The notes under the pieces: generated by a model
Databases searched by the model: none
Seen by the model: only the letters and a program-made list of their open reading frames with translations
Told to the model about the DNA's origin: nothing
Shown here: positions 1 through 16,677 of the stretch, piece after piece
Layout: each line of letters begins with the position of its first letter
Position numbering within the stretch: position 1 is the stretch's first letter
Assembly (NCBI GenBank): GCA_045106415.1
Contig: JBGCEP010000013.1
Coordinates: 1-16,714, forward strand
DNA length: 16,714 nt
Reading direction: 5' to 3'
Origin: Oligoflexales bacterium
GTDB lineage: Bacteria > Bdellovibrionota_B > Oligoflexia > Oligoflexales > Bog-1112
Translations under genes and position numbers: made by a program

Positions 1-655
1 TACGACAACATTTTCATTTAAATAAGGGCTTAAAACAAACTTAATATAAGTGTTGAAGACCTCGGCGTCACAGGTTCCTTCAAAAACAAAAGGAGCGATC
101 AATTCTCCTTTAGAATTTAAGGACCCAATAATATTTACAGCATTATATTGTGAACCTTCTTTTAAGCCATAAAGTCTTGAGCTTTTATGCCCCCAACCAT
201 ATTGGCATGTTTCATTATGTTTAACGCCACATTCATCCAGGTAAATAATTTCTTTCTCATATTTGTCACTAATTTTCTTCTGAAAAATATCTCGTTTTAT
301 TTCACAACGATTTTTGTATCCAAATGTTTTTTTATATGTGAAATTCATACTACGTAAATACCGCCGTATGGTAGAATCAGTGATATCACCCCAATCCTTG
401 GCTATTTCTTCTGAACTTCGATCTGGTTTTTTTTCTACAATTTTTTTAAAAGCATTAAGATCTTGTATTTTTCTCGACATCCCTTTGGGCCACTTTTATT
501 AGGGTCCATAGACCCTGTTGTCCTCAACTTTAATTGCCAGTTGTAAATTGTCTTACGGGAATTTTAAACATATCGCTGACGGCAACAGAGCTGTAGCCTT
601 CTTCTAGAGCGGTGATAATCTTTTTTTAAAGGTTTGATGAATATAATTTATGCAT
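1..655 (-). pseudogene. IS630-family transposase, degraded (runs off the left edge of the window)
   Basis: Manual translation of the minus strand: ATG at 655 gives MHKLYSSNL*KKIITALEEG (HTH start with a premature TAA). Frameshifts near 555 and 490 restore ...RKTIYNWQLKLRTTGSMDP. The frame is then open from 480 to 1: ...EIAKDWGDITDSTIRRYLRSMNFTYKKTFGY...IIYLDECG (first DDE Asp)...YGWG...NIIGSL...APFVFEGTCDAEVFNTYI...VVV. The ORF track misses it because the frame has no stop inside the window. Confidence 0.9.
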
Positions 656-699
656 ATTGAACCCAATTTTTTGTGGCCGTAACATATTAAAATTTAATA

Positions 700-724
700 G
701 TAAAAAATATATTCCAATGCTATA
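700..724 (-). repeat. Putative left terminal inverted repeat (with TA target) of the IS630 element at 1-722
   Basis: Minus strand reads TA-TAGCATTGGAATATATTTTTTAC about 45-70 bp upstream of the transposase start. IS630/Tc1-mariner elements insert at TA. It matches the right end of the MITE (15961-15985, reverse complement) at 19/25 positions. Confidence 0.55.
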
Positions 725-924
725 GCTTAATTTCAACTTGCGAGCCCACAGCAAACTCCGCGACGTTAATTGACAAAAAAGTAGGATCATATATATCCGA
801 AAACCATTCTATAACGAACTAATATTACAGTGTGCTAGACCATGAATCTTTGTATGGTTTTAAACCAACTGTACTTCGCTTAAGTCCGAGATTATAGGCT
901 TTTAACTTGTCTATTATAATTTGC

Positions 925-1524
925 TTATTCACCTTTGTTCCAAATTGCCTTAAAGTTGGCCGTCCCAGAGACTGGACTAGAAAAATCACAAAAATATTTC
1001 TCTTGCCAGATCTGAGTACTTTTCGCCAGCTTACTTGTCGTCAATACCCAAGGTGAATAAACACGGATTCCTCTTTTTCCACCTGTACCGTTATTTGAAA
1101 ATATCGTCTTATGAATCAGCACTTCCTTTGAGAATAGAAAAAAGCCAATATTTTCTTTGTTCCTTGTGCCTATGACAAAGAAATCGATTCCGTCAGTGCT
1201 ATCATGAGGGACAGTCACGCCACCTACACGCTTCCACAGAGTTACAAAATGTCCTACTTTAGTAGGAGTTGTCTTTCCGACTCTAAATTTTATTTTCCTA
1301 CCATCAAGGTCAAAGCTAAGAGCTCCATATTCTTGACTTTCCTTGTCTACCTGAATATTTTTAGGCGTTAGCCTCAAGGGGTTCAATACTGTCCTATTCA
1401 GTGAGAGGAAGTCTTGATGAAGATCAACGTCTCCAATGCCAAAATCAATGCTTTGATTACCTGTTTTCAATACTAATCCTAATCTTTTTTTAAATAGATC
1501 CTGCAAGCGCCAAGATTTCAGCAC
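925..1524 (-). CDS. MepB-family protein (start codon uncertain)
   Basis: Characteristic MepB motifs ESQEYGA, FRVGKTTPTKVGHFVTLWKR, GFFLFSKEVL, GKRGIRVYSPW and TQIWQ. The N-terminal ~35 aa from the GTG start may not be real. Confidence 0.8.
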   Translation of the reverse strand: MLKSWRLQDLFKKRLGLVLKTGNQSIDFGIGDVDLHQDFLSLNRTVLNPLRLTPKNIQVDKESQEYGALSFDLDGRKIKFRVGKTTPTKVGHFVTLWKRVGGVTVPHDSTDGIDFFVIGTRNKENIGFFLFSKEVLIHKTIFSNNGTGGKRGIRVYSPWVLTTSKLAKSTQIWQEKYFCDFSSPVSGTANFKAIWNKGE

Positions 1525-1606
1525 AATATTTATCAGGCTGCCTTAACCTAATAAAGTGATCGGAGTCCTCAAACTCAAGCAATTTTGCACCCTGATGCTT
1601 AAACCT

Positions 1607-1676
1607 TTGAAAAGCTATGCACTCGAACTTGGGCAAATCTTGAATAAACCTCAATTATTTTATGTGATTGGTATTA
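1607..1676 (+). mobile_element. Orphan right end of an IS630 element (last transposase codons, right TIR and TA)
   Basis: 67/70 nt identical to the reverse complement of 10295-10364. Encodes EKLCTRTWANLE* followed by ACCTCAATTATTTTATGTGATTGGTATTA. Confidence 0.9.
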
Positions 1677-1678
1677 TT

Positions 1679-2695
1679 CTAATCCATAATTTTATCAAAC
1701 AACAATCTATGCAATCTTATGGATAAGTCCTCGCCATCCTGTTCAAAATATATATTTTCCAATAAAACTTCGATACTTTCGTCATTAAGGTCTCGCATAA
1801 GAAGCAAGCATAACTCCTGATGTTTTTCCATAAAATAAGGCTTAGCCATATGATCTAACATCATTAAAAAAATAAGTTGATTGATGTGTTTCTTAAAATC
1901 ATTATGTTGATCACTAGAGATGTTTCTTATAGATCTTAAATTTTTAAGAAAGCTCTCACTAAAAAGAAAATCATTAGAAAAAGACACCGAAAAAAAACTA
2001 TAATCAGAAATACAAACATGCTGTTTTAATGACATAGACATAGAGGGGGCTCGTATAAAAATCCAACCCTTATCTTTCTCAATCAAGCAATGCGTTAACA
2101 AACAAAATTTAGCAACACAAAGATATCTTGATGTATAAACCCTGTTTGGTTCAATCTCTATACGGTCATCATTAAATAGCGTTCTCTCCGAGTTCAAATG
2201 AAAAAATCCACGGCACGGACCATGTGCAAAATGCAGTTCATTAGGAATGAAAAACTTTAAAGTTTGCAACGCTTCATTTAAAGCCTTTAATAATAATAAA
2301 TAAGAAATTTTTTGATAAGAGTGGTGAGTTCTTACTTTAGACTGCAGAAGTATATCCACATCAAAAAAAAGATCACTTGATATCTCTTCAAAGCTTTTAC
2401 TATCGGACGAACAAAAGTATTTTTCTACATCAAAGCAGTATTTCACTAAAAGGTCTTGTGCATCCCCAGGATAAAAAAGACCTTTTTTCAACACCCAATA
2501 TCTTGGGTACTTCTTTCGGTAAGAAGCACTATTAAATATTTCCTGCACAATAAAAAACATGTTTTTATTTGTTTTTTGTAAAGAAGAAAGATTTTCCGGA
2601 ACCATTTGAGACAAAATATCTTTAGGCAAGTCTTTTAAATCTAGAGAAAAAGACCATGAAGTATAAAAACATAAGATCACACACAAAGACTTCAT
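1679..2695 (-). CDS. Hypothetical exported protein with N-terminal F-box-like motif
   Basis: Long ORF. The preferred ATG at 2695 follows an AGAAGG RBS (the track starts at 2719). Signal-peptide-like MKSLCVILCFYTSWSFS is followed by LDLKDLPKDILSQMVPENLSSLQKTNKNMFFIV, resembling the F-box pattern LxxLPxE/DIL...L..L..V/TxKxW. The remainder is not recognised. Confidence 0.7.
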   Translation of the reverse strand: MKSLCVILCFYTSWSFSLDLKDLPKDILSQMVPENLSSLQKTNKNMFFIVQEIFNSASYRKKYPRYWVLKKGLFYPGDAQDLLVKYCFDVEKYFCSSDSKSFEEISSDLFFDVDILLQSKVRTHHSYQKISYLLLLKALNEALQTLKFFIPNELHFAHGPCRGFFHLNSERTLFNDDRIEIEPNRVYTSRYLCVAKFCLLTHCLIEKDKGWIFIRAPSMSMSLKQHVCISDYSFFSVSFSNDFLFSESFLKNLRSIRNISSDQHNDFKKHINQLIFLMMLDHMAKPYFMEKHQELCLLLMRDLNDESIEVLLENIYFEQDGEDLSIRLHRLLFDKIMD

Positions 2696-2827
2696 CTTTA
2701 AAAACCTTCTTAACAACAAAATACAGATTTTCTGTACACGTTTTTATCTAATAATGTCAACAAATCATCGAAATCTGAGAAAAGATCGGTAGGCTCAATA
2801 AATAAAACATAAACAAGAAACAAAATA

Positions 2828-2856
2828 TTTACTTTATTCAACATTCAAGATATAAA
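2828..2856 (+). promoter_or_regulatory. Possible sigma70-type promoter for the RING gene
   Basis: TTTACT-N17-TATAAA about 30 bp upstream of the ATG at 2887. Weak evidence in AT-rich DNA. Confidence 0.3.
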
Positions 2857-2886
2857 CAGCATCTAAGATTGCAGGGAGCAGATAAA

Positions 2887-4503
2887 ATGATAACAAATTT
2901 AAAAATTCACTGGGTTCAAAACCTTATTTTTATAGCAACTTTACTATCAAACTCAAATCTCTACAGCACTCAAAATCATCCGACAATCCCAGGGATGAGA
3001 AATCCTCATTTACAGTCTTTTATTACCGATTATTATTTAATGGATTCATCACAGCAGATGATGAAAGAAAGACGAATCAGGGGTCCTATTTCCGGTGGTT
3101 TTCTTCACAAAACAGTCACATACCCAGATATGCCACTTCAGGCTATTTCTCTAAGAAAACAAAAAGCTCACAGCAAATTGATTCAAATCGGCAATAAAAG
3201 CATTGTCGAAAAAAATACATCTATAGGCTATAACACAACAATATTTGAAAACATTCACATCCATTCTAATGTGATTATTGGAAACAATGTTCAGGTTCAT
3301 CAAAATGTTATTATTGGTGAAAATGTAAAAATAGGAAACAACGTTTGTATTGGCGTTGGTGTGTATATTGCTCCTAACACTGTGATTGGCAATGATACGG
3401 TCATTCAAAACCACGCACAACTCAACCTCACAAAAAAATCTCACCCTTTTCCTATTAAAATTGGAAAATATTGCTTTATTGGTTGTGACTCAGACCTACT
3501 GAACGGTGTTACCGCAGAAGATCATGTTGTCATCAATAAAAACTGCCTCGTCATTGGGCCTTTCACTTCGATAGGGCAAAGGTCTTACCTAGGAGCCGAA
3601 TCCTCAATAGAGAAGTCCAGCATCGGAAAAGACAATAAAATTGAGGCCGATAGTTGTTTGTATCGATCCACATCTGAAGATCGTGTCCAAATAGGCGCAG
3701 GTTCAGAAATTGGACCTAACGTCACTATTGAAGAAAATAGTCCCATTCCAAGAAGGTTTATCTTCCGCGATCCAACTGGCAACGCACGGCTCAAAGCAGA
3801 ACTTCTATACTCAGAGCCTCAGAGTTCAGATCATTATTTTTCAGATATTATAAATATCGAGATTGAAGACGAAGATGGAACAAAAGTACAACTACAAGGT
3901 CGTATTAAAAATATTGACAGTCATGGTCATGAGCACCTCATCGAAATAGTGGAACCTGAAGAAGTTTATCAAAATGCATTTGAAATCGAAGCACAAAAAA
4001 CACCTCGCTGGAACTATGAACCAAAAATTAACAGTGACACTGTTGGTCAACATTTAGCTGACCGCACTGGTGAGTGTTCCATCTGTCTAAATCATTTTAC
4101 AGAAGATGAACAGCTCTTTTCTCTTCATGCTTGCTCTCATTCTTTCCATAAATCTTGTATCCTACCTTGGTTTACCGAACATCAAACATGCCCATTATGT
4201 CGCTCTTCTTCTTACCCGAATTTAAAAGACAAAGCTAAAATTGTCGAAGATATCAAAAAAGCTCTTTTAATCTTAAATCACGAAATCACTTCTCATGAAG
4301 AAGATGTTATGACCCCCACCAATGGGATTGTTCAGTTTCATAGAGTATCAGAAGACGATGATGGTATCTTTTTCTCATTCGCACTCAACTTACATGACAA
4401 TCGTGAAAACAACGCGGTCATTCTAGCTGCAATCAATCACTTTGCTGAAGAGGGTTTAGAACCTGATCAGGATTATGATATTGAAGTCATATACTCTAAT
4501 TAA
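2887..4503 (+). CDS. Putative exported protein: signal peptide + hexapeptide-repeat left-handed beta-helix + RING-H2 zinc finger (candidate E3 ubiquitin ligase)
   Basis: ATG at 2887 follows AGGGAG (the track starts at TTG 2869). Hydrophobic N-terminus (WVQNLIFIATLLSNSNLYS). Many [LIV]-G-x-N-x-x hexapeptides at ~3181-3750 (IIGNNV QVHQNV IIGENV KIGNNV CIGVGV YIAPNT VIGNDT). Complete C3H2C3 motif CSIC-x15-CSHSFHKSCILPW-x6-CPLCR at 4075-4203. Confidence 0.9.
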   Translation: MITNLKIHWVQNLIFIATLLSNSNLYSTQNHPTIPGMRNPHLQSFITDYYLMDSSQQMMKERRIRGPISGGFLHKTVTYPDMPLQAISLRKQKAHSKLIQIGNKSIVEKNTSIGYNTTIFENIHIHSNVIIGNNVQVHQNVIIGENVKIGNNVCIGVGVYIAPNTVIGNDTVIQNHAQLNLTKKSHPFPIKIGKYCFIGCDSDLLNGVTAEDHVVINKNCLVIGPFTSIGQRSYLGAESSIEKSSIGKDNKIEADSCLYRSTSEDRVQIGAGSEIGPNVTIEENSPIPRRFIFRDPTGNARLKAELLYSEPQSSDHYFSDIINIEIEDEDGTKVQLQGRIKNIDSHGHEHLIEIVEPEEVYQNAFEIEAQKTPRWNYEPKINSDTVGQHLADRTGECSICLNHFTEDEQLFSLHACSHSFHKSCILPWFTEHQTCPLCRSSSYPNLKDKAKIVEDIKKALLILNHEITSHEEDVMTPTNGIVQFHRVSEDDDGIFFSFALNLHDNRENNAVILAAINHFAEEGLEPDQDYDIEVIYSN

Positions 4504-4528
4504 GTGGTAGGCCAGGTTCGGCTACCGC
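4504..4528. terminator. Imperfect GC-rich hairpin immediately after the RING gene stop
   Basis: GTGGTAG(G)CC-aggttc-GGCTACCGC forms a ~9-bp stem with one bulge and one G-U pair. There is no clear U-tract on the + strand. Confidence 0.3.
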
Positions 4529-5035
4529 ATCAGAATTGCTGTAAAGAAAATCTTTCAACTGTCATAAAAGATCTTTAAAAGTTTTCAGACATCTTCTTAG
4601 AGAGCGATGCATCTAAATCACTCAAAAAGAAGAAATTTTTCTCGACAAGAGATTCATCTTTCTCTTGTATACTTGTGGATTCAGAGAATTTTTAAAGTAG
4701 CGATTTAATTTGAATTTAAACTTTAGATCCGACATTGAGCAGCTCTGGTGCTGATTTTTTCTTTAAACCATGACAACTTGAAATCAATGTAAATTTTTAA
4801 TTCCCTCAAAATTCGATCACTATTGAATTTATTATTCAAAGATTTAAAAGCAAACTCAAAACCCGCATCGATCAACATTTTTATAATGTCAATTACCATA
4901 AAGAAAAAGTAGCCCCAGAACTGCTCAATGTCGGTTAGATGGGGCAAGAAATAAATTCAACCTCTACTTTCAAAAATTTACACACTACGTCTAATTCAGA
5001 AGATTGTTTAACCTCTTTTGACGCACGGCTTACTA

Positions 5036-6103
5036 TCATCCTGCAATATGGCTCATCATAAGTTCTAAATTTTCTTGAGAGGTGGCATGCTTCATAGCTG
5101 CCTCACGGGACACGATTCCTTTTTCATACATTTGATAAATTGATTGATCAAATGTATGCATGCCATGGTGAGATCCTTCTTTGATAACATCTGGAAGAAC
5201 TTGAAAATTTCCTATTTGAATATAATCCCGAATCGAGTGATTAATCGCCATCACTTCAGTAGCAACTGCGCATCCTCTTCTGTTTTTCTTTTCTAGTAAT
5301 CTTTGAGAAACGATCATCTGAAGTGTATTGGCGAGCTGCGTTCGGCACATTTCATGATGGTGAGGGGGAAACCAATTAAGAACTCTTGACAAAGTCGATG
5401 CAGCATCGAGAGTATGAAGTGAAGTCAAAACAAGATGTCCTGTTTCTGCAGCAAGTAGTGCAAACCGCGCAGATTCCATGTCTCTTAATTCTCCTATCAT
5501 AATCACATCAGGGTTTTGCCTAAGAGCCGATTTCAAAGCCAACTCAAAACTAGGTGCATCTGATGGTATTTCTCTTTGTTGAATTGTACTTTGTTGATCT
5601 TGAAACATATATTCAACAGGGTCTTCAATCGTAATAATATGAGCTTTACGGTGCTGGTTAACCGCTTGAACAATAGCAGCGAGTGTTGTGCTCTTCCCAC
5701 TTCCTGTTGCACCCGTCACAAGAACCAGCCCTCTTTGTTTCATAGCCATCTTCGAAATAATAGAAGGAAGCTGGAGCTCTTCTAAAGTTTTAATACTCAT
5801 AGGTATGGGGCGAATCACCATACTGTGGGATCCCATTTGTCGAAAAATATTAACACGGAAACGTCCTACCTCTCCTTGAAAACCCATATCAACATCATGG
5901 CCCTCATCTAATTTTTGCAGAAGTTTTTTATTTAAAAGAGTCTTTACCCATTGGTTCATCTGATCAGAAGAAATCACATTCCCATCAGTCAAAGGCACAA
6001 GATCACCAAGGTGTCGAAAAGTTGGAACACGTCCCACTTTTAAAATAATATCGCTCGCACCACCTTGCACTCCTACTTTTAAAAGATCATGAATTGCAAC
6101 CAT
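5036..6103 (-). CDS. pilT: Type IV pilus retraction ATPase, PilT/PilU family
   Basis: N-terminal GASDIILKVG, GRFRVNIFRQ, Walker A GATGSGKST, Asp box ITIEDPVE, SALRQNPDVIMIGELRD (Walker B), His box AETGHLVLTSLHT, GMHTFDQS. The AIRNLIRE position reads SIRDYIQI, so it may be a PilU-like paralogue. Confidence 0.92.
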   Translation of the reverse strand: MVAIHDLLKVGVQGGASDIILKVGRVPTFRHLGDLVPLTDGNVISSDQMNQWVKTLLNKKLLQKLDEGHDVDMGFQGEVGRFRVNIFRQMGSHSMVIRPIPMSIKTLEELQLPSIISKMAMKQRGLVLVTGATGSGKSTTLAAIVQAVNQHRKAHIITIEDPVEYMFQDQQSTIQQREIPSDAPSFELALKSALRQNPDVIMIGELRDMESARFALLAAETGHLVLTSLHTLDAASTLSRVLNWFPPHHHEMCRTQLANTLQMIVSQRLLEKKNRRGCAVATEVMAINHSIRDYIQIGNFQVLPDVIKEGSHHGMHTFDQSIYQMYEKGIVSREAAMKHATSQENLELMMSHIAG

Positions 6104-6130
6104 AATAAACCTTTAGATCGATTTAACTCC

Positions 6131-6158
6131 TTATCGGTATCATTTTCCAAAAGTCTGA
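6131..6158 (-). promoter_or_regulatory. Putative sigma28 (FliA) promoter of pilT
   Basis: Minus strand TCAG-N16-ACCGATAA, 27 bp upstream of the ATG. Consensus is TAAA-N15-GCCGATAA. Confidence 0.5.
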
Positions 6159-6262
6159 AACATGCGATTAAAACATAGGGCAGAGTACAAAAAAATCAAC
6201 ACCTTGGGTATTTTTTAGACAAATGATAAGATAGCCTGGTTCATTTTTAAGAAGGATCTTTG

Positions 6263-7231
6263 ATGAAAAAATATGATGTTTCCGCTGTCTGTAATGCCCT
6301 TGTTGATGTTCTCTATCAAATTTCACAAGAACAGCTCGATGAGCTCAAAATCAGCAAAGGTATGATGACACTTGCTGATGCTGAAACTCAAAAAAAACTC
6401 CTTGGAAAATTAGGGGCACCAGATCGATGTGAACTCGGTGGTTCTGCAATGAATGCTATCCGTGGTTTAGCAAGTCTAGGAAGTTCAACCGTTTTTGCCG
6501 GCATGGTTGGCCGTGATGACTATGGCAAAACGATCCACAAACGTATGGAAGAACTTAATATAAAAAATAACCTTGGCGAATGCGACGATGCCACAGGAAC
6601 TTGCATTGTTCTTGTTACACCTGATGGAGAAAGAACGATGCATACTTGCCTTGGGGCAAGCCGGCTTTACACAACAGCTAATATTCCAAACGAAATCACA
6701 GATTCAAAAGTCTTTCACTTCTGCGGATACCAATGGGATACAGATGAGCAAAAATCTGCAATAAAAAAAGCAATTGCATTAGCAAAAGAAAACAACACCA
6801 CAACCTCTTTCGACGTTGCTGATCCTTTCGTTGTTCAAGCACATAGAGAAGACTTCAAAGCCTTGATTAAAGATGGCGCAGATATTGTATTTGCAAATGA
6901 GGAAGAAGCGAAATTACTTTACAACCTCTCTCCTGAAGACACTGCGGCATGTATTGCAGAAACAGGTGCAACTGCTGTCATTAAACTTGGATCAAAAGGA
7001 GCTATCATTCAAAAAGGTTCCCAAAAAATCAAAATTGATCCCGTTCCAACAGACGTTGTCGACACTACGGCAGCTGGAGATATGTTTGCAGCTGGTTTTC
7101 TCTGGGGCTTTACGCAAGATAGACCTCTCGATGAGTGTGGGCGCGCAGCAGCGACTCTCGCAAGCGATACAATCCGTCAGCTTGGCGCATCCCTATCCTC
7201 AGAAGTCATCTCAACCTTGAAAGGATCATAA
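6263..7231 (+). CDS. PfkB/ribokinase-family kinase, adenosine/inosine kinase-like
   Basis: NALVD, KGMMTL, GGSAMN, TGTCIVLVTPDGERTMHTCLGA, FANEEEA and the PfkB signature VDTTAAGDMFAAGFL. ATG at 6263 follows AAGAAGGA. Confidence 0.9.
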   Translation: MKKYDVSAVCNALVDVLYQISQEQLDELKISKGMMTLADAETQKKLLGKLGAPDRCELGGSAMNAIRGLASLGSSTVFAGMVGRDDYGKTIHKRMEELNIKNNLGECDDATGTCIVLVTPDGERTMHTCLGASRLYTTANIPNEITDSKVFHFCGYQWDTDEQKSAIKKAIALAKENNTTTSFDVADPFVVQAHREDFKALIKDGADIVFANEEEAKLLYNLSPEDTAACIAETGATAVIKLGSKGAIIQKGSQKIKIDPVPTDVVDTTAAGDMFAAGFLWGFTQDRPLDECGRAAATLASDTIRQLGASLSSEVISTLKGS

Positions 7232-7234
7232 GCT

Positions 7235-8632
7235 GTGAAAAATTTCCTTCAAGATATTGTGAACCAAGAGTCTGGTTTTGTTGAATTGCGATACCACGCA
7301 CAACAGCTCAACAACATCTGTGTCACCCGAAAACGCACAGATAGTGCTCATCACCAATATCTTGAAGGAATTGCTGTTCGCGTCCATGAGAACGGTCACT
7401 GGGGCTTTTCAGCCACCTCAGACCTCTCAAAAGAATCTATTCAGCGAGCAATTTATCGCGCACGTCAGAGTGCCGCGCACATTACTCGAATTTTACCTAA
7501 TTCACACAAAAATCCTTTAAGAAAAGTTGATCTTTATAAAGGTAGTTTCATAAGCCCTGGATATGAAGAAATCCAAAATATACCTTTTGAAGAAAAAATA
7601 TCTAAAATTTCACAAATAGAACGAGAAGCAGCTCTCGCTTCTTCCAAGATTCATACAGCATCATGCCGCTACGAAGAGCTTATTGAACATAGAATCATTA
7701 TCACCTCTGACGGAGCTCAAGCTGACATTAAGACCTCAAGACCGACTCTTTATGTCCGTTGCTTTGCTCAGCATAAAGATAAAGAATCTACAGCAGATCA
7801 TGCCGCAGGAATCACAGGTTCCTGGTCTCAACTTTTGCAGCACCCTCAACTCATCAACGCCTCAGAAAAAACAGCCAAAAAAGCCATCGACCTCCTCTGT
7901 GCCCCATATGTGAAAAGTGGAACGCATTCTGTAATTTTATCCCCTGCTCTCGTAGGTCTCTTGTGCCATGAAGCCATAGGACACACTGTTGAAGCTGACT
8001 TCGTAAAAGCAGGATCTGTCGCTCAAGGCCGACTCAACACACAAATAGCCTCCGAGCACATCACTCTTATAGATGAGGGATCGCCTGAACAAAAAAGTGT
8101 CGCAGGCTATCTTCCTTGTGACGATGAAGGTGTTATCACAAAACCTACTCATATCATTGAAAAAGGCCAACTCAAATCGTATCTCCACGATCGCACATCA
8201 GCGACAGAATTTGAAACAGCACCCACTGGCAATTCTCGTGCATTCAGCTATATTGATGAACCCATGATCCGTATGACAAACACATATTTAAAGCCTGGTA
8301 AAAAAGACCTTGATGAAATGATCTCTGAAATTCCTTTTGGCTATCTAGCTGAAGGTGATGGCGGCGGAGAAGCCGACAGTAACGGTGAGTTTCAGTTCGG
8401 ATGCGGGTGGTTATGGGAAATTAAAAACGGTCGGAAAACTCGGCTCATCAGAGAAGCCAATCTTTCTGGTCTCGCGTTTGAAGTTCTTCAAAGTGTTGAC
8501 GCAGTCAGTACATCTTCCCACTGGGATATGGGCTCTGGGTACTGCTACAAAGGGCAGAAAGCAAAAGTCGATGCTGGCGGCCCTCACATTCGCTGTAAGC
8601 TGCATATAGGAGGACAATCATGTCAGTCATAG
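7235..8632 (+). CDS. tldD: TldD-family metalloprotease (catalytic subunit)
   Basis: GIAVRV..G.WGF N-terminus, metal-binding HEAIGH (HExxGH), DDEGV, TGNSRA, PMIRMTNTY, and C-terminal GYCYKGQ with the conserved Cys. GTG start lies 3 bp after the kinase stop. Confidence 0.92.
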   Translation: MKNFLQDIVNQESGFVELRYHAQQLNNICVTRKRTDSAHHQYLEGIAVRVHENGHWGFSATSDLSKESIQRAIYRARQSAAHITRILPNSHKNPLRKVDLYKGSFISPGYEEIQNIPFEEKISKISQIEREAALASSKIHTASCRYEELIEHRIIITSDGAQADIKTSRPTLYVRCFAQHKDKESTADHAAGITGSWSQLLQHPQLINASEKTAKKAIDLLCAPYVKSGTHSVILSPALVGLLCHEAIGHTVEADFVKAGSVAQGRLNTQIASEHITLIDEGSPEQKSVAGYLPCDDEGVITKPTHIIEKGQLKSYLHDRTSATEFETAPTGNSRAFSYIDEPMIRMTNTYLKPGKKDLDEMISEIPFGYLAEGDGGGEADSNGEFQFGCGWLWEIKNGRKTRLIREANLSGLAFEVLQSVDAVSTSSHWDMGSGYCYKGQKAKVDAGGPHIRCKLHIGGQSCQS

Positions 8633-9954
8633 AACAAAGGTCCCATTGGCAAAAAACACAAAAAGATAGTCTGCACACACTCGCAAGTCATATGCTCGAT
8701 CTCGCCAAGCAAGAAGGTGCAGACCATGCAACAATCTCAGGGTCGACTTCTATCACAGATAAAGTTGTCATAGAGAGTTATGATTTAAACCTTGCCTATA
8801 CGACAGAAGAAACTATTCTCTCTTTATCTCTTATTTGCAATCAAAAACAAGCCTCAGCCACGGTAAACACAACCGACCCACAGCGCCTCCGTGAAACCAT
8901 ACGTAAAACATTACAGATAGCGAAACACAGCGCTCGTGATGATGACCTTGTTATTGCACCAAAATCAGACAATGTAACGACCCTTCCTTTTATCAACCAA
9001 GACTCTCTCCTCAAGCTTTCTTTACAGGATCTTTTAGAGGCTTCTATGACTAGCCTTTCTTACTGGAACCATCAATATTTTTCTCCAGACAGACTAGAAA
9101 CAAGTCTAGATACCTCAGTTCACGTCATGATGAATTCGAATGGATTAGTAAGAGATGAACTTTCAACAATAACTGACTGGGGTTTTGCTGGTTTCTGCCG
9201 CGATGATGAACATGTTAGCAGTGTTGATTATGATGGCGGATTTTCACATACCAGCTTTCAACCACTAACCGAACATGCAAAGAGTTTTCAGAGTCACGTT
9301 TTAAAAGGCCTCAATCCTCAGACTCTCACTCGAACACCTAGACTTGTCCTCATAACTCCTCGCGCCATGGATGATTTTCTTTTAGATCCTATTCTCTATC
9401 ACTTAAACGGTTCTATTTTACGTGATAAAAAAAGCAAATGGCCTACACAAGGAGAAAAAGTTCTACCCTCCTCTATACATATAACAGAAAATCCTCACCA
9501 AAGAGATTTCCGCGATGCGACATCCTGGGATCACGATGGCCTCGCAACTTACCCGCAAATCCTTATAAATCACGGTTGTGTAAGCCAGCATATTCATAAT
9601 TGCCATACGGCAAAGAGCCTTCAAACCACACCTTCGGGTCTAGCCGGAGGTCCTTTTGGGCTCAAAATGCATGGTGGTCAAGACTCTCTTGATAACTTAA
9701 TGCACACAGAATACGTTCTGGTCATTGAACGTTTTTCTGGTCATATCGATCCTCTCACAGGTGACTTCAGTGGTGTCGCAAAAAATTCTTACACAATAGA
9801 TAAGCAAATCCAAACACCTATCACTGAAACGATGGTTTCAGGAAATCTTTTTAAGGCTCTTGAAAACATACAAGGTCTCTCACAAGAGACAATCAACATC
9901 AGTGGGTCTTATGAGTCTCCTTATGTCCTTATGTCTTCTATACAAATTTCATAA
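8620..9954 (+). CDS. pmbA: PmbA/TldE-family protein (non-catalytic partner of TldD)
   Basis: NSNGL, WDHDG, DPLTGDFS and ITETMVSGNLF motifs, no HExxH. AGGAGG RBS and a 13-bp overlap with tldD. Confidence 0.88.
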   Translation: MSVIEQRSHWQKTQKDSLHTLASHMLDLAKQEGADHATISGSTSITDKVVIESYDLNLAYTTEETILSLSLICNQKQASATVNTTDPQRLRETIRKTLQIAKHSARDDDLVIAPKSDNVTTLPFINQDSLLKLSLQDLLEASMTSLSYWNHQYFSPDRLETSLDTSVHVMMNSNGLVRDELSTITDWGFAGFCRDDEHVSSVDYDGGFSHTSFQPLTEHAKSFQSHVLKGLNPQTLTRTPRLVLITPRAMDDFLLDPILYHLNGSILRDKKSKWPTQGEKVLPSSIHITENPHQRDFRDATSWDHDGLATYPQILINHGCVSQHIHNCHTAKSLQTTPSGLAGGPFGLKMHGGQDSLDNLMHTEYVLVIERFSGHIDPLTGDFSGVAKNSYTIDKQIQTPITETMVSGNLFKALENIQGLSQETINISGSYESPYVLMSSIQIS

Positions 9955-10294
9955 AAGATTTCATCACTCCATCACACGGCTGTTATGAATTTACTTAAAC
10001 CTATACTCCGCAGATTTAAGAGTTACGCCAGAATGTTGTGGATAAGAAAAGTATGACTATCTATTCTCGTTATTAGGAAAACAACAAGTAGGCTCAACCA
10101 AGACCAACAAGAATGAGGTCGTCATACTTAAACTTCTATCAAAGGCACTCTCATAAAAACAAGATCTTCTTTCGTTGTCTTTAGATGAGTTTGAAAAACA
10201 CGGTATCAAAAGACTGTTGTTCTAAACATTGGAGCTCAAGCATCCGCAGCATCACAGAAATTATTTTGAAAAATCAATATCATAGGGCAGAGAG

Positions 10295-10675
10295 TAATAC
10301 CAATCACATAAAATAATTGAGGTTTATTCTAGCTTTACCCAAGTTCGAGTGCATAGCTTTTCAATAGCACCACCTTCATTACAGAACACATTCCAAGCAT
10401 CACAACAAGCCTGAACAATATCTTCGTAGTCTTTGAAGCATGTGTTAGAAAGATGATATTGCTTCAATCTTTGCCAGACCTGTTCCATTAAATTTAATTC
10501 TGGTGAATATGGAGGTAAGGGCATAAGTGTTATATTTTCAGGGATATTCAAAGCTTCTGTGGTGTGCCAACTAGCTCGATCCATCAAGATTATTGCGTGA
10601 CGATTTTCATCAACTTGAAGTGATATTTGTTCAAGGTGAAGTTGCATCGTTCCCGTGTTCGTTTATGGAATTAAA
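10295..10675 (-). mobile_element. Truncated IS630-family element (C-terminal DDE fragment, ORF 10324-10647, plus right end)
   Basis: AIILMDRASWH and LPPYSPELNLMEQVW are the IS630 D2/E motifs. Upstream the frame reads LIP*TNTGT (in-frame stop at 10663-10665) and similarity is then lost. The right end ...GTGATTGGTATTA is at 10295. The protein differs from the IS630 at 1-655. Confidence 0.9.
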
Positions 10676-10758
10676 ATTCTCGAATTGATTTATGCAACAA
10701 CGGGCACCATATTTATTAACTAAAAGTTATTATTATAAAAATTAAAATTATTTTTTAT

Positions 10759-10785
10759 TAAATTAATGACTTTAGCCGCCGATAA
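10759..10785 (+). promoter_or_regulatory. Sigma28 (FliA) promoter of the large lipoprotein gene
   Basis: Exact consensus TAAA-N15-GCCGATAA, 24 bp upstream of the ATG at 10810, with a GGGAG RBS between them. Confidence 0.8.
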
Positions 10786-10809
10786 GAGTGACCTGTATGG
10801 GAGTGCTAT

Positions 10810-13623
10810 ATGAAGTTTATGATCTTTATTTTGTTTTTTATCAGTTCGTGTGAAAATTCAAAACACGCTGTGAATCGAAATATTCTAAGTGAGGTTGGCG
10901 TACAAACTTCTTTTTCAGATTCATCTCGCAAAGTTCTTCTCCCAGAAGAAGCCATAGTTATTAAAGTTGCGAATGGCACTATGTCTGCTGTTAAAGGTTC
11001 GTATACGGATCCAGTTGTGATCGAATTGGCTTCTTTGGACTCAGGGCTAGGTGAGGGTTTGACTATTAAAACTGTGTTTTTATCTGGAGATAGGACTCAA
11101 AACCCTGTTCCTCAACAAGACCTTGAAATTTGTATCATGGCAGATGGAGAACCAAGCCTTAAAGATATTCAGGTTACCTCGGATTTTGATAAAAGTGTGA
11201 CTCAATATGATGGTTTTGTGAAAGATTCTGAAATCTGTATCTTAACTCGGGTCGTTTCAGGGAGCTTTGAAGCCGTTGTTAGCTCTGCAGTAATTCCATC
11301 AGATCTGGCAACAACAGATAATAGCGACACAACAGAAGTCACAAGCGGGATTTTATTAAACCTCAATCAATTCAATGATTTAGGTTCGTTAGACATCGAA
11401 CCGACACATGATCTCTCTGTAAATCAGATATTGGCAGAACACGTGAAGCTTTTAAAAAGTACAACAATAACAGGAGCGATTGAAATTGAGTGGGGAGGAG
11501 ATGATGCAGTACGAGCGAGTTTATTAAGTCTTACTACGGCGAAAATTTGCCTTAATACCGAAAAAAACATCCGTACTGTGACTCAAATTCATGAAGATGG
11601 AGCTGTATCACATACGGGAGGAACATTAATAGAAAACAAATTGTGTTTAGTACCGTCTAGTCTTTATGGCCATTTTATCCTTGGGCCTCCTCGGTTAGAA
11701 GTTGTAAGTCTAGATACTGTGAATACAGTCTTGGCTTCGGACCCTAAGATTGATGTTAGTCCTATGACAAAAGAAGACGTTTTATTTATTTATTCGAGTT
11801 TGGATTGTTCTGGAACTGTCATCAAATCGCAAACTGCTTTGGATGATGGAGGCATGAAAGTAGAGTTGAACCATATGCAAGAAGGGTTGTATTCTCTTTA
11901 TTCACAGATCCTATCAAAAGATGGGGCTATAGGTGAATGTCAGAAATTGATCGATCTTGTTGTTGATACTACGGCCCCTGCGAGTCCAGTTCTTACGATT
12001 GATGGTGGGGTTGTGACATCAGATGCAGCTCCAAATCTAATACTATCAGCAATTGGTGCAAGTGAGATGTATATCACGAACACCTCTGGTTGTGGATCTG
12101 GTGGGAGTTGGGAAAATTATGCTACAGCCAAAGCTGACTGGCCTTTAGGGCAAAGTAATGCTGTGGCAAAAGTTTATGTGAAGTTTAAGGATGTCGCAGG
12201 AAATGAATCAAATTGTGTAAACGATACAATCACTCACGATGCTACGGCTCCTACGAATCCCACTATGACAATATCCAGTGGTGCAGCCTACACGACCAGT
12301 TCTTCGGTGACGTTATCACCAAGTTCTATTGACGCAAGTGAGATGTATATTACAAACATTTCTGGTTGCGGATCTGGTGGCAGTTGGGAAAACTATGCAA
12401 CGACCAAAGCCGCTTGGGCTTTAGGTCAAGGTAATGCTACTGCAACAGTTTACGTAAAATTTAAAGATACGGCAGGGAATGAGTCGACTTGTGAAAACGA
12501 TACCATTATTCATGATAATACGGCTCCTTCAAATGTAGGTTTATTTGCTGATGGAACGGACTCTAAAAGCCTCACAGAGTCTGCGGATATGACGTGGAAT
12601 GCCAGCTTTGATGGTGGATCTGGTGTGGCATCTTATGAAATCTCAATAGGGAGCTCCTTAGGAGCTACGGATGTAAAAGATTGGACAGATGTAGGGAACA
12701 TCTTAACAGCATCGCTTACGGGTTTTGCTTTGAGTAATGGGACAACGTATTACGCTAATATACGAGCGTTAGACAGTGCTGGGAATATCAGTTCCGTTGT
12801 GAGTGGAGATGGATTTAGTGGAAATGTCTTAATCGACTGCTCTGGTTTAAGTGGTGGTACTTGGATAGGTGTTCCAGGAGACGTTGATTATGGGACGTCA
12901 GATTTTTGTGTCATGAAATATGAAGCGAAGAATGTTGCAAATACTCCAGCATCTAATGCGGCAGGGTTGCCTTGGGAAAATATTTCTCATGGTGATTCAA
13001 TCACAGAGTGTTCATCGCTAGGGACTGATCATCATCTGATCACAAATGAGGAATGGATGACGATCGCTGCCAACGTTGCCTACGTTGACGACAATTGGAG
13101 TGGTGGAACTGTTGGAAGTGGCTTAATGAACCGTGGGCATACAGGTTCAGGTATTCTAGCCGCGAGTTCTGATGATAATGATCCTTGTGTAGGAACAGGG
13201 CAAACATGTGATGCATCTACATGGGATGTGAAGAGAAGAACGCATAAGCTTTCAAATGGGGAAGTGATTTGGGATTTGTCAGGCAATGTTTATCAATGGG
13301 TAAATGCTCATGAAGCGAATGGCAAGGTGAGCCCATTAGATGACTACAGAGAGTATTCAGAATCACTATCAGATGGAGCGAACTGGTCAGTCACTGATTT
13401 AATTCCTAGAAATTCTCAGAAAAGTTTTTGGGATGATAGCTGGGATCTAAATCAAGGGCTTGGGAGTTATTATCCAGGACTCAATGGTGATGGCGGTGCG
13501 ATGCTAAGAGGAGGAAGTCGGGCCGATGGGGTAAGTGCAGGTGTGTTTGCAGTGCTTTTAAATATATGGGGTTCGGTTGACCACACATGGATCGGTTTTC
13601 GTTGCGCGGCACCAGCATCTTGA
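10810..13623 (+). CDS. Large surface lipoprotein/adhesin: Ig-like repeats + FN3-like domain + C-terminal C-type-lectin (FGE-sulfatase-like) fold domain
   Basis: Lipobox-like FISS-C at Cys14. D-x-T-A-P-linked Ig-like modules, then an FN3-like module (W..S.D.GSGV.SYE...TYYANIRALDSAGN). The C-terminal domain has FCVMKYEAK, HLITNEEW, IWDLSGNVYQWV, LRGGS and IGFRC. Confidence 0.85.
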   Translation: MKFMIFILFFISSCENSKHAVNRNILSEVGVQTSFSDSSRKVLLPEEAIVIKVANGTMSAVKGSYTDPVVIELASLDSGLGEGLTIKTVFLSGDRTQNPVPQQDLEICIMADGEPSLKDIQVTSDFDKSVTQYDGFVKDSEICILTRVVSGSFEAVVSSAVIPSDLATTDNSDTTEVTSGILLNLNQFNDLGSLDIEPTHDLSVNQILAEHVKLLKSTTITGAIEIEWGGDDAVRASLLSLTTAKICLNTEKNIRTVTQIHEDGAVSHTGGTLIENKLCLVPSSLYGHFILGPPRLEVVSLDTVNTVLASDPKIDVSPMTKEDVLFIYSSLDCSGTVIKSQTALDDGGMKVELNHMQEGLYSLYSQILSKDGAIGECQKLIDLVVDTTAPASPVLTIDGGVVTSDAAPNLILSAIGASEMYITNTSGCGSGGSWENYATAKADWPLGQSNAVAKVYVKFKDVAGNESNCVNDTITHDATAPTNPTMTISSGAAYTTSSSVTLSPSSIDASEMYITNISGCGSGGSWENYATTKAAWALGQGNATATVYVKFKDTAGNESTCENDTIIHDNTAPSNVGLFADGTDSKSLTESADMTWNASFDGGSGVASYEISIGSSLGATDVKDWTDVGNILTASLTGFALSNGTTYYANIRALDSAGNISSVVSGDGFSGNVLIDCSGLSGGTWIGVPGDVDYGTSDFCVMKYEAKNVANTPASNAAGLPWENISHGDSITECSSLGTDHHLITNEEWMTIAANVAYVDDNWSGGTVGSGLMNRGHTGSGILAASSDDNDPCVGTGQTCDASTWDVKRRTHKLSNGEVIWDLSGNVYQWVNAHEANGKVSPLDDYREYSESLSDGANWSVTDLIPRNSQKSFWDDSWDLNQGLGSYYPGLNGDGGAMLRGGSRADGVSAGVFAVLLNIWGSVDHTWIGFRCAAPAS
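11965..12513 (+). repeat. Two tandem ~91-92-aa Ig-like repeats (11965-12237, 12238-12513)
   Basis: Both contain ASEMYITN.SGCGSGGSWENYAT.KA.W.LGQ.NA.A.VYVKFKD.AGNES.C.NDTI.H. Many nucleotide differences in the conserved core are synonymous. Confidence 0.92.
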
Positions 13624-13894
13624 ATCGTGGTGATTGCCTATTCCGTATTTTTTATTGTGAAAATTGGTTGAAGTCTTGATACCGCTTTTGGCAAAACCTG
13701 TCTTTGAAGTCGTCATTTTATAGCCAGAGTCGGTCAGTTGTATAAGTTCAACTGTAATGCATAAGTATCGTGTCGTAGTGATTGGGATCCGCTGTCGGTG
13801 AGTAAAAATCGAGTCATAGCTCTTGTTTAAATGTTTTTCAATTCGACCTTCCTTGTGATTGAAGCTCTCTAGGCCAAATGAGATAATAGCAGCA

Positions 13895-15482: not shown

Positions 15483-16677
15483 ATGGAGCATATCTTTGAA
15501 ATAAATATCAACCATCTCTTTCCCGGAATTTGATCAGGTGTTACCTCAAAGTGATGGGCATCATCGCCTCATTTTGATCTTGGACGACTTGGCACCCTTT
15601 ACTTCTGAGGTCTTGAACAGTTATCGCAACCCACAAACCAGGGGTCGAAATAGAATTGATCGTTGGTCATTTATTTCAGCATTTATTGCGCAAAAGGTTC
15701 TTAAAATACCAACTGTAAAAGCATTATTGGAAAGACTACCCATGGACAAAACATTGCAAAGAATGTGCAAATTCAAACTGACAGGAAACGACCCTGTGAG
15801 GCTACTTTCTCTAATGTTTTTAATACTTTTTCAGAATTGGGAATTACAGAAAAAGTCCATGGGAAATTTGCATAGCAAGGCAAAGCTTTATTTACACACT
15901 CATAGATATCAAATATTGCTTTAAAAAGCGGATTTATCAACTTTGCAAAACTCTTAACGCGTAAATAAAATCATCTAATGCCATATCTTCAAAATTGCAA
16001 GATGACTTGGCTCATAATGTAAGCCGGGATGCTACAGCAATTGAAATAAGAGAAAAAACCGCAAAAAAACATAAGAACAAAAATGAAAACCAAAAAAAAC
16101 GGCGAGTTCGACCTAAAAAAGGAGATGAACAACCAAAAGCGCTTTCTAAAGTTGAGCAACAGCTAAAAATGACCCAGGAGCAAAAATTAAATTCACTCCC
16201 TAGCTTTTATGATAAAGGTTGTAAGAAAAACTCCCAAGGCAACAAAGATTATTGGATAGGTTACAAACTTCATATAGACACAATTGATGGAGATATCCCA
16301 GTCTTTACAGTTCTGACACCTGCTTCAGTTCATGACAGCCCAGCATCTACCCCCTTGGAAGAGATGACTTCTCAGAGAGTCAATAGTCTTTATTCATTGA
16401 TGGACGCAGCATATGATTCTGCCGCAATTAAATCTCAAATTAGAGATAAGGGTAAAGTGCCGGTTGTTGACCACAACCCAAGAAGAGATGAGAAAATAAA
16501 GATGCCTCCTCCTGAAAAAGAAAGATATAAAGCTCGCTCATCTTCAGAACATGTAAACAGTTATTGAAAGATGCATTTGGAGAAAGAGAGTTAAGAGTAA
16601 GGGGAGCCAAAGAAGTCATGATATCACTGAGCCTAGGCCTGCTTGTCATGGCCTCACAACAGCTCATGAAACTTTAA
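15483..16677 (+). pseudogene. DDE transposase, IS5/IS1182-like (DDE_Tnp_1 type), frameshifted and MITE-interrupted
   Basis: Reconstructed across frameshifts at about 15520, 15785 and 16563 plus the insertion: YQPSL/FPEFD...AFIAQKVLKIPT...RPCEATFS...VSRDATAIE...GCKKNSQG..YWIGYKLH...ASVHDS...LMDAAYDS...ERYKARSSSEHVNS/LKDAFG...VRGAKEV...QQLMKL*. Exact family assignment is uncertain. Confidence 0.85.
15873..15983. mobile_element. ~111-bp IS630-type MITE inserted in the transposase pseudogene
   Basis: Removing 113 bp rejoins KVHGKF-[V/A]-SSKLQDDLAHNVSRD in frame. The ends are imperfect inverted repeats sharing TTTATTTAC (TAGCA...TTTATTTAC / GTAAATAAA...TGCCA), flanked by CA and TA. Confidence 0.7.

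Follow-up and report, generated by a model that had tools for sequence, protein, structure and literature searches.

A divergent gene pair with a RING-H2 finger and an F-box-like motif in an Oligoflexales bacterium: putative exported ubiquitin-ligase mimics

Several bacteria make proteins that imitate parts of eukaryotic ubiquitin ligases. The F-box or RING/U-box mimics AnkB and LubX of Legionella, VirF of Agrobacterium, GALA of Ralstonia and NleG of enterohaemorrhagic Escherichia coli hijack host SCF ligases or E2 enzymes, and they are delivered by type III or type IV secretion without a cleavable Sec signal. To our knowledge, bacterial ubiquitin-ligase mimics are known almost only as type III, IV or VI cargo. 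The locus described here lies on contig JBGCEP010000013.1 of an Oligoflexales bacterium (assembly GCA_045106415.1), the whole 16,714 nucleotides of which (16.7 kb, contig C13 of the genome) were analysed and are called the window. It carries two divergent open reading frames (ORFs) with signal-peptide-like starts: ORF A, in which the start is followed by a degenerate F-box-like motif, and ORF B, which has a beta-helix and a RING-H2 finger. The reading leaned towards, with restrained confidence, is that ORF B encodes an E3 ligase mimic which is exported by Sec and directed at a eukaryote, and that the same holds, with less certainty, for ORF A. The likeness to AnkB, LubX, VirF, GALA and NleG is one of mimic type, with the U-box giving 0 matches in this genome.

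The closest bacterial precedent is the expansion of F-box, BTB and RING/U-box families in the Parachlamydiaceae, which are lineage-specific and fast-evolving, with copy numbers that vary widely between close relatives (Domman et al. 2014, PMC4209131). These chlamydial proteins were proposed as type III substrates and assayed with a Shigella reporter; the term 'signal peptide' is not in the main text of that paper (PMC4209131). As far as they are described there, they share with the present set a lineage-specific, fast-evolving character, the eukaryote-type ubiquitination domains, an N-terminal F-box with leucine-rich or other repeats behind it, and uneven copy numbers. The present set differs in its Sec-type signal-like starts, in that a type III secretin was not found in the genome, in belonging to another phylum, and in having more RING-H2 than F-box proteins.

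In logic, the closest analogue is a set of insect proteins. The SPRINGs of grape phylloxera combine a signal peptide with a RING E3 domain, show species-specific duplication and rapid evolution, and are proposed to be delivered into the host and to rewire its ubiquitin system (PMC6892190). They leave the cell by eukaryotic secretion, so that the likeness is one of logic and not of homology; the set described here would be a bacterial counterpart. In the literature searched, nothing connects the Oligoflexales, Oligoflexia or Bdellovibrionota with the ubiquitin system, F-box proteins or eukaryotic-like mimics. The comparison suggests that the new elements are eukaryote-like E3 mimics with Sec-type signal-like starts, in a new lineage and on native exported scaffolds, their activity, export and host being putative.

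The RING-H2 finger of ORF B is complete, as had been read from the letters alone. It has eight zinc ligands in the C3H2C3 order with canonical spacing (CSIC-x14-CSH-x2-H-x2-C-x10-C-x2-C), and C400, C416, H418, H421, C424, C435 and C438 are invariant in eight family members. Its zf-RING_2 score, given in the table for the protein alone, is 52.9 bits in the genome scan. The best Pfam families of the finger, zf-RING_2, zf-rbx1 and zf-C3HC4, are eukaryotic. Its sequence matches in the Protein Data Bank (PDB) are headed by ZNRF3 (2.6e-10) and EL5 (6.3e-10), followed by RNF126, RLIM, RNF13 and RNF38. ZNRF3, EL5 and RNF13 are transmembrane proteins. Against these, the EL5/ATL group and RNF165, the ligand spacing is alike, and ~48 residues align at 33-43% identity. 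The aligned fingers share the helix Trp, the CP-x-CR ending and, behind the first Cys, a hydrophobic residue, positions which we take to contact E2~ubiquitin. Active eukaryotic RING-H2 ligases are the nearest matches of the finger by sequence. Outside the finger, ORF B is unrelated to them: it has a beta-helix of bacterial type, and it lies on a bacterial chromosome.

An AlphaFold2 model of ORF B built on eight family sequences has a mean predicted local distance difference test score (pLDDT) of 49.8, with 62-80 in the RING and a disordered linker between the solenoid and the RING. The modelled RING fits RNF165 (in its UbcH5b~ubiquitin complex) and RLIM (with E2~ubiquitin) at a root-mean-square deviation of 0.6-1.0 A over 46-48 columns, a fit of the model only; for RNF165, the template modelling (TM) score by target is 0.86-0.90 over 47-48 columns. 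Foldseek with the whole model gave no match at E <= 0.001 (the values were 0.01-0.1), and only the RING sub-matches were informative.

From its N-terminus, ORF B consists of the signal-like segment, a GGF motif, a left-handed beta-helix, a linker, the RING-H2 finger and a small C-terminal alpha/beta domain. G70 and G71 of the GGF motif are invariant in the alignment of the paralog family. The helix has four stretches of PF00132 Hexapep repeats (84.7 bits against a threshold of 27) and is modelled as a regular beta-solenoid over residues ~100-283 at pLDDT 63-77. Among the best 120 of 512 matches in a database search with ORF B, only LpxD-type beta-helix proteins occur. The acyltransferases LpxD, LpxA and GlmU were considered and rejected: the best match, to LpxD, scores 65 bits against an NCBIfam cut-off of 207 and covers the repeat region only. 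Since these matches are partial and far below the cut-offs, ORF B is not one of those enzymes. Fifteen more genomes of this family (the family genomes) hold matches to ORF B at domain level only. Residues 380-538 used as query found no homologue but ORF B itself, and the Atlas model of the C-terminal domain gave generic small alpha+beta look-alikes (TM 0.53-0.64) that name no family.

Besides the RING, the beta-helix-RING proteins have solenoid repeats, a signal-like start and a C-x-G...GGFVAxTA motif in common. When reference genomes were scanned with the pattern [YL][VI][KR]GGF[VI]A[KHR]T, built from four closer sequences, one family member came up, in a record with the title Pseudobdellovibrionaceae bacterium. 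Further matches were RING-less proteins, 168 and 228 amino acids long, in a Halobacteriovorax marinus record and another metagenome-assembled genome; they begin in the same signal-like way, and their repeats are scored as being of the YdcK-type solenoid/hexapeptide kind. YdcK-type solenoids (PF18836, PF00132) resemble the N-terminal two thirds of the ORF B paralog family in start, GGFVAxTA motif and repeats. They differ in having no RING, and the repeats of ORF B itself score as canonical Hexapep, not YdcK. Because RING-less versions with the same start exist, the exported scaffold appears native, and from these sequences the RING looks like an addition to it. The H. marinus protein, at 2968-3474 (+) of locus L072, is the one of 168 amino acids; it is exported-looking, with a GGFV-x-TA motif and no RING.

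All 14 RING or F-box-type ORFs of the genome have a hydrophobic, signal-like start. A Sec signal peptide has a basic n-region, an uncharged hydrophobic h-region and a small-x-small cleavage site within ~30 residues. The starts were judged by a strict home-made rule, not a trained predictor, which accepts 17% of all long frames: of 2168 background frames 371 pass, and of the 14 ORFs 8 do (binomial 8e-4). The signal-peptide-like starts claimed for ORF A and ORF B held, both passing at the first ATG. On a looser measure, a hydrophobicity score >= 1.5, 14 of 14 pass, against 53% of the background. Most N-termini of the set end in small-x-small cleavage-like motifs; several are only moderately hydrophobic or without a basic n-region.

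The same feature is found in relatives. Their loci hold 33 ORFs that fit the RING-H2 pattern, two of them cut by contig ends, and 28 of the 31 complete ones are signal-like (score at least 1.86), against 45% of the background. The four F-box ORFs of relatives have, by eye, the same signal-like layout, and two of these are F-box/leucine-rich-repeat proteins. By contrast, only 4 of 17 RING ORFs in three genomes outside the family (G088, G106, G128) reach the score, and none is classical. Several of these outside ORFs look eukaryotic, being proline-rich or RRM-like, and they may come from DNA that contaminates the bins (G088 is listed at 8% contamination); Skp1 was looked for in these three genomes and none was found.

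A complete type II secretion operon is present on contig C21 (GspC twice, GspD twice, E, F, G, J and K). VirB4, TssC and the type III secretin SctC were not found in the genome, which is 93.8% complete in 89 contigs. Type II substrates have no sequence signature. The Sec-dependent route that had been proposed, in place of type III or type IV secretion, is strengthened by the 14 signal-like starts and those of the relatives, with the type II operon and the missing VirB4 and SctC also in its favour and export itself predicted. Within this operon, at 546-13696 (-) of C21:4000-23999, GspC and the GspD secretin are each duplicated in tandem.

It is conceivable that the proteins are effectors whose hydrophobic N-terminus would be an anchor in a host membrane, delivery being left to an unrecognised or unassembled translocation system. 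The membrane-bound ligases ZNRF3, EL5 and RNF13 among the best PDB matches would fit such a role, as would the N-termini that are weakly hydrophobic or have no basic n-region, and a secretion system could be missing because of the incomplete, fragmented genome. However, none of VirB4, TssC or a type III secretin was found, the RING-less beta-helix relatives in a bacterial predator start with the same kind of N-terminus, and most N-termini finish in cleavage-like motifs. Host-membrane anchoring is therefore considered unlikely.

ORF A is a more difficult case. Its 338 amino acids agree with the length on record in a protein database, and comprise the signal-like N-terminus (with no lipobox, read from the sequence), the degenerate F-box-like motif and ~260 mostly helical residues to which no fold was assigned. 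Searches of 5.8 billion and of 1.84 billion proteins gave no relative but ORF A itself, nor is there a match in the family genomes, and alone it matched nothing among PDB sequences. It is not among the genome-wide PF00646/PF12937 matches. An AlphaFold2 model made without an alignment was unusable (pLDDT 37.6).

The relationship of ORF A to F-box proteins is seen through two other genes of the genome. One, at the edge of contig C80, has an N-terminus with which residues 8-92 of ORF A align (34% identity, E 7e-6), and this gene itself has a weak F-box-like match (E 0.017); the other, on contig C56, is over the Pfam F-box cut-off (25.8 bits against 20.5). In all three genes, an L-x-x-LP-x-D-[IV] motif lies right behind the hydrophobic N-terminus. 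In hhalign, the profile of ORF A and the C80 gene matched five Pfam-supported F-boxes of the family at 82% probability and E 1e-5, over 28 columns. Among PDB entries, the three-gene profile scored best with FBXO4 and FBXL5, at a weak E of 0.05-0.12. Language-model look-alikes of ORF A in the ESM Atlas include F-box clusters at 0.86 and 0.80, below the 0.9 bar for a lead, and 6 of 10 structure rows are from F-box clusters, every TM score being below 0.5. When 10,973 frames were searched with a hidden Markov model of the three N-termini, no further member came up. The F-box-like motif that the sequence-only reading placed right after the predicted cleavage site stands in its position behind the hydrophobic segment, with indirect support from paralogy, profiles and the language model, but it does not have that of the Pfam F-box families. 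That ORF A is an F-box derivative is plausible from its sequence but not proven, and Skp1 binding is putative.

The two genes are head to head, 191 bp apart from ATG to ATG, as had been read (~190 bp). The proposal that they form a co-regulated locus was not supported. There is no orthologous ORF A/ORF B pair in the family genomes, and none of the four F-box genes of relatives is on a contig with a RING match. A sigma-70-like promoter and terminator scan of 1500-4800 found no promoter-like site in the spacer, and over the whole region eight such sites against 12.1 in shuffles. No upstream 7-mer is enriched among the 14 genes: the best occurs in 5 of 14, with p 0.005 before 2217 tests, and nothing survives.

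F-box and RING genes adjoin a second time on C56, where an F-box gene (3402-4376, +) and a RING-H2 gene (4475-5494, -) are tail to tail, ~100 bp apart, and so convergent, unlike ORF A and ORF B. Two of the three F-box-type genes therefore adjoin one of the ~11 RING genes, for which the naive chance is ~3e-4. This figure, together with the divergence over 191 bp, is what could be cited for ORF A and ORF B being one co-regulated functional module that acts on a single host pathway. The naive null is wrong, however, because RING genes cluster in tandem in relatives, and such clustering explains the adjacency as well. The RING protein of the convergent C56 pair has a different architecture, the family genomes have no orthologous pair, no upstream 7-mer is enriched, and SCF ligases are known to use Rbx1 and not a free RING-H2 protein. 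A two-gene module is thus improbable; the adjacency most likely comes from the clustering of such genes and not from joint work as a unit. The tandem arrays in relatives consist of RING paralogs with signal-peptide-like starts; G017:C75 has a row of three, and G011:C25 at least three, with the common start MKNILL.

The genome has ~11 genes of the RING or RING-IBR type and 3 of the F-box type, zf-RING_2 having 9 matches over the cut-off and 3 weaker ones, and the F-box families one over the cut-off (C56) and one weak F-box-like match (C80); one ankyrin protein and no U-box were found. At E <= 1e-4, RING-H2 was found in 12 of the 15 family genomes. Elsewhere in the order 1 of 79 genomes has it, and among those genomes of the phylum set that do not belong to the family, 3 of 115. 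The two RING-IBR (RBR-type) proteins, on C41 and C18, look unusual in their fusion to such bacterial domains as are given in the table, and both have signal-like starts. GC content was tried as a sign of recent transfer and rejected: only ORF A (31%, the 1.4th percentile of long frames) and the C30 gene are outliers, the other 12 genes being ordinary.

Prokaryotic RING families exist in Pfam, the C41 paralog has a weak Prok-RING_1 match (E 0.002) and no host is known, so that the proteins might act in or on the bacterium itself, as membrane-anchored prokaryotic RING or treble-clef proteins in, for example, a ubiquitin-like or envelope process, with no eukaryotic target. Yet the best Pfam families of the finger are the eukaryotic ones named above, RING-IBR and F-box/leucine-rich-repeat are architectures typical of eukaryotes, the searches gave no E2 or ubiquitin-like gene (weak negatives), and a periplasmic RING would have no known partner. 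A purely bacterial role is very unlikely. As had been stated for the window, there is no E1, E2, ubiquitin or JAB family match among its 14 ORFs.

The contig is bacterial, and the organism is, as had been thought, of the Bdellovibrionota/Oligoflexia kind. Its genome has 2.95 Mb in the 89 contigs, with 0.33% contamination. To the right of ORF B, a PilT-family ATPase gene with 52% identity to genes in two family genomes ties the pair to the bacterial chromosome, and the contig has insertion sequence (IS) elements and short repeats in common with 16 other contigs of the genome, at 84-100% identity. TldD was tried as a marker of contig membership and failed, having a match in only 1 of 15 family genomes (E <= 1e-20), and PilT and the shared repeats were taken instead. 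Among independently built contigs from one run (X1), one covers ORF A, the spacer and ORF B at 1887-3378 and a second connects ORF B to PilT at 3772-5844. A contig from a second run of the same study (X2) crosses the spacer at 2493-3025 with four differences. Three of these, at 2677, 2682 and 2696, are in or beside the first codons of ORF A and point to strain variation at its start. These two runs, labelled plant metagenome, are those that carry the DNA of the window; they are probably its source, and therefore no conclusion on habitat is drawn.

A chimeric or eukaryotic contig, which would have refuted the sequence-only reading, is not what these bridges and repeats indicate. The pair could nevertheless be debris, either eukaryotic DNA wrongly assembled into the bin or unexpressed orphans that decay in an island rich in IS elements: ORF A is a complete orphan of low GC content, transposase fragments flank the region, and no RNA run is listed with it, which is a blank and not evidence. 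Against this, frames of 338 and 538 codons stay open at 31-37% GC with the RING ligands intact, two samples' contigs bridge ORF A and ORF B and one run's bridges ORF B and PilT with few differences, the repeats are common to 16 other contigs at low contamination, and the domains are fused to bacterial modules. Decay or artefact is accordingly held to be very improbable.

The preferred reading of ORF B as a Sec-exported ligase mimic, and with less certainty of ORF A, can be set out as follows. Ubiquitin-ligase modules of eukaryotic derivation (RING-H2, RING-IBR and F-box) would be lineage-wide in one Oligoflexia-type family of the Bdellovibrionota, grafted behind Sec-type signal peptides and often onto native exported scaffolds. 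The signal peptide would carry the unfolded protein over the inner membrane, and the protein might then leave the cell through the type II system of C21 or in vesicles. Once in the eukaryotic cytosol, the RING-H2 finger of ORF B could recruit a host UbcH5-type E2~ubiquitin, as would be expected because its ligand set is intact and its fold nearly identical to that of active RING-H2 domains, with the beta-helix as a putative oligomerising or target-binding scaffold. In the weakest step, ORF A may dock host Skp1 through its degenerate F-box, its orphan C-terminal part presenting targets.

Several points weigh against this reading. The signal peptides are assigned by heuristic only, with export and E3 activity predicted; the background rates of the heuristics are high (17-53%), the relatives are not independent, and the h-region of ORF B is moderately hydrophobic and contains Q and N. 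If folded in the periplasm for type II secretion, a Cys/His zinc finger must survive oxidising conditions, and an exported protein would still have to cross a host membrane. No host is known, the only runs with this DNA being the two of the plant metagenome study. E2 and ubiquitin were not found in the genome, negatives which are weak because no control genome gave a match. The repertoire is thinner than in classical amoeba symbionts, with a single ankyrin protein and no U-box match, a search in which the control genomes were also silent. ORF A matches 0 Pfam or NCBIfam families at E <= 0.1, missing the F-box and F-box-like thresholds, and, compared with the C80 paralog, four residues are deleted from its motif between helices 1 and 2. 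When C56 is left out of the profile, FBXO4 and FBXW7 are at E 0.22-1.8 in the PDB and CalpL, which is not an F-box protein, ranks first.

A wider view is possible, although it is held with more doubt than belief: the whole Oligoflexia-type family may have turned to eukaryotic hosts or prey, delivering RING-H2, RING-IBR and F-box ligases by Sec and type II secretion or vesicles and not by an injection machine, with captured eukaryotic E3 domains welded onto its own exported scaffolds (beta-solenoid, FGE-sulfatase-like and repeat). If true, Sec/type II export would be a second route for E3 ligases into eukaryotic cells, with a new delivery logic, and life free in the host cytosol is a possible explanation of such a route. 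The pattern predicts an unrecognised eukaryote-associated lifestyle in one family of a phylum known for preying on bacteria, of which the arsenal would be a genomic marker. The RING on a native beta-solenoid and the RING-IBR on FGE-sulfatase-like and pentapeptide proteins would be clean examples of captured domains wired into a bacterial secretome, and the combination of signal peptide and RING or F-box could serve as a metagenome search key for similar organisms.

Table 1. Positions of the features in the window and locations of the other RING genes of the genome
Feature	Location	Strand	Description
ORF A	1679..2695	-	338 amino acids from first ATG (2695); listed ORF 1679-2719 begins at upstream TTG
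F-box-like motif of ORF A	2516..2644	-	Residues ~18-60, LKDLPKDILSQM...; directly after hydrophobic segment
Signal-peptide-like N-terminus of ORF A	2645..2695	-	Residues 1-17, MKSLCVILCFYTSWSFS; strict heuristic passed at first ATG
Divergent spacer	2696..2886	.	191 bp, ATG to ATG
ORF B	2887..4503	+	538 amino acids from ATG; listed ORF 2869-4503 begins at TTG
Signal-peptide-like N-terminus of ORF B	2887..2967	+	Residues 1-27; strict heuristic passed; AlphaFold2 single helix at residues 2-25
ISGGFLHKTVT motif	3088..3120	+	Heads beta-helix; common to paralog family and RING-less YdcK-type solenoid proteins
Left-handed beta-helix (hexapeptide repeats)	3184..3756	+	Residues ~100-290; Hexapep E 1.9e-24, LbH_EIF2B E 1.1e-14
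RING-H2 finger	4072..4203	+	Residues 396-439; zf-RING_2 (PF13639) 48.3 bits against 27.3, E 1.2e-12
C-terminal ~94 amino acids	4219..4503	+	Small alpha/beta domain, no assigned function; pLDDT mostly <50
IS630-type transposase fragment	1-480	-	Left flank, listed (-) with 1..1524; Pfam DDE_3 E 4.6e-12
MepB-like gene	925-1524	-	Left flank; MepB-like E 2.3e-41
PilT-family ATPase	5036..6103	-	Right flank; TIGR01420 at 402 bits
Beta-helix-RING, four genes	Contigs C13, C88, C28, C25
RING with unassigned N-domain, two paralogs	Contigs C11, C56
Ankyrin-RING	Contig C9
Small RING	Contig C25
RING-like	Contig C30
RING-IBR with FGE-sulfatase-like domain	Contig C41, 2042-3958 of locus L008	+
RING-IBR with pentapeptide repeats	Contig C18, 3605-5125 of locus L009	-

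Further to the right of PilT, the window carries a PfkB kinase gene and a TldD/PmbA pair (7235-9954, +), the latter with a counterpart only in the one family genome mentioned above; it may be a recent gain. At 10810-13623 (+) is a gene for a 937-amino-acid protein with a lipoprotein-like start (...FFISSC) and internal repeats, the C-terminus of which has a GFRC ending like that of FGE-sulfatase-type domains; Pfam gives a weak fn3 match only. A copy of this gene is present on contig C26 at 70% DNA identity, and the GC skew is strongly positive over the gene. At 15872-15987 lies a 115-bp element of which at least six other contigs carry copies, 93-99% identical, and which may be a miniature mobile element.

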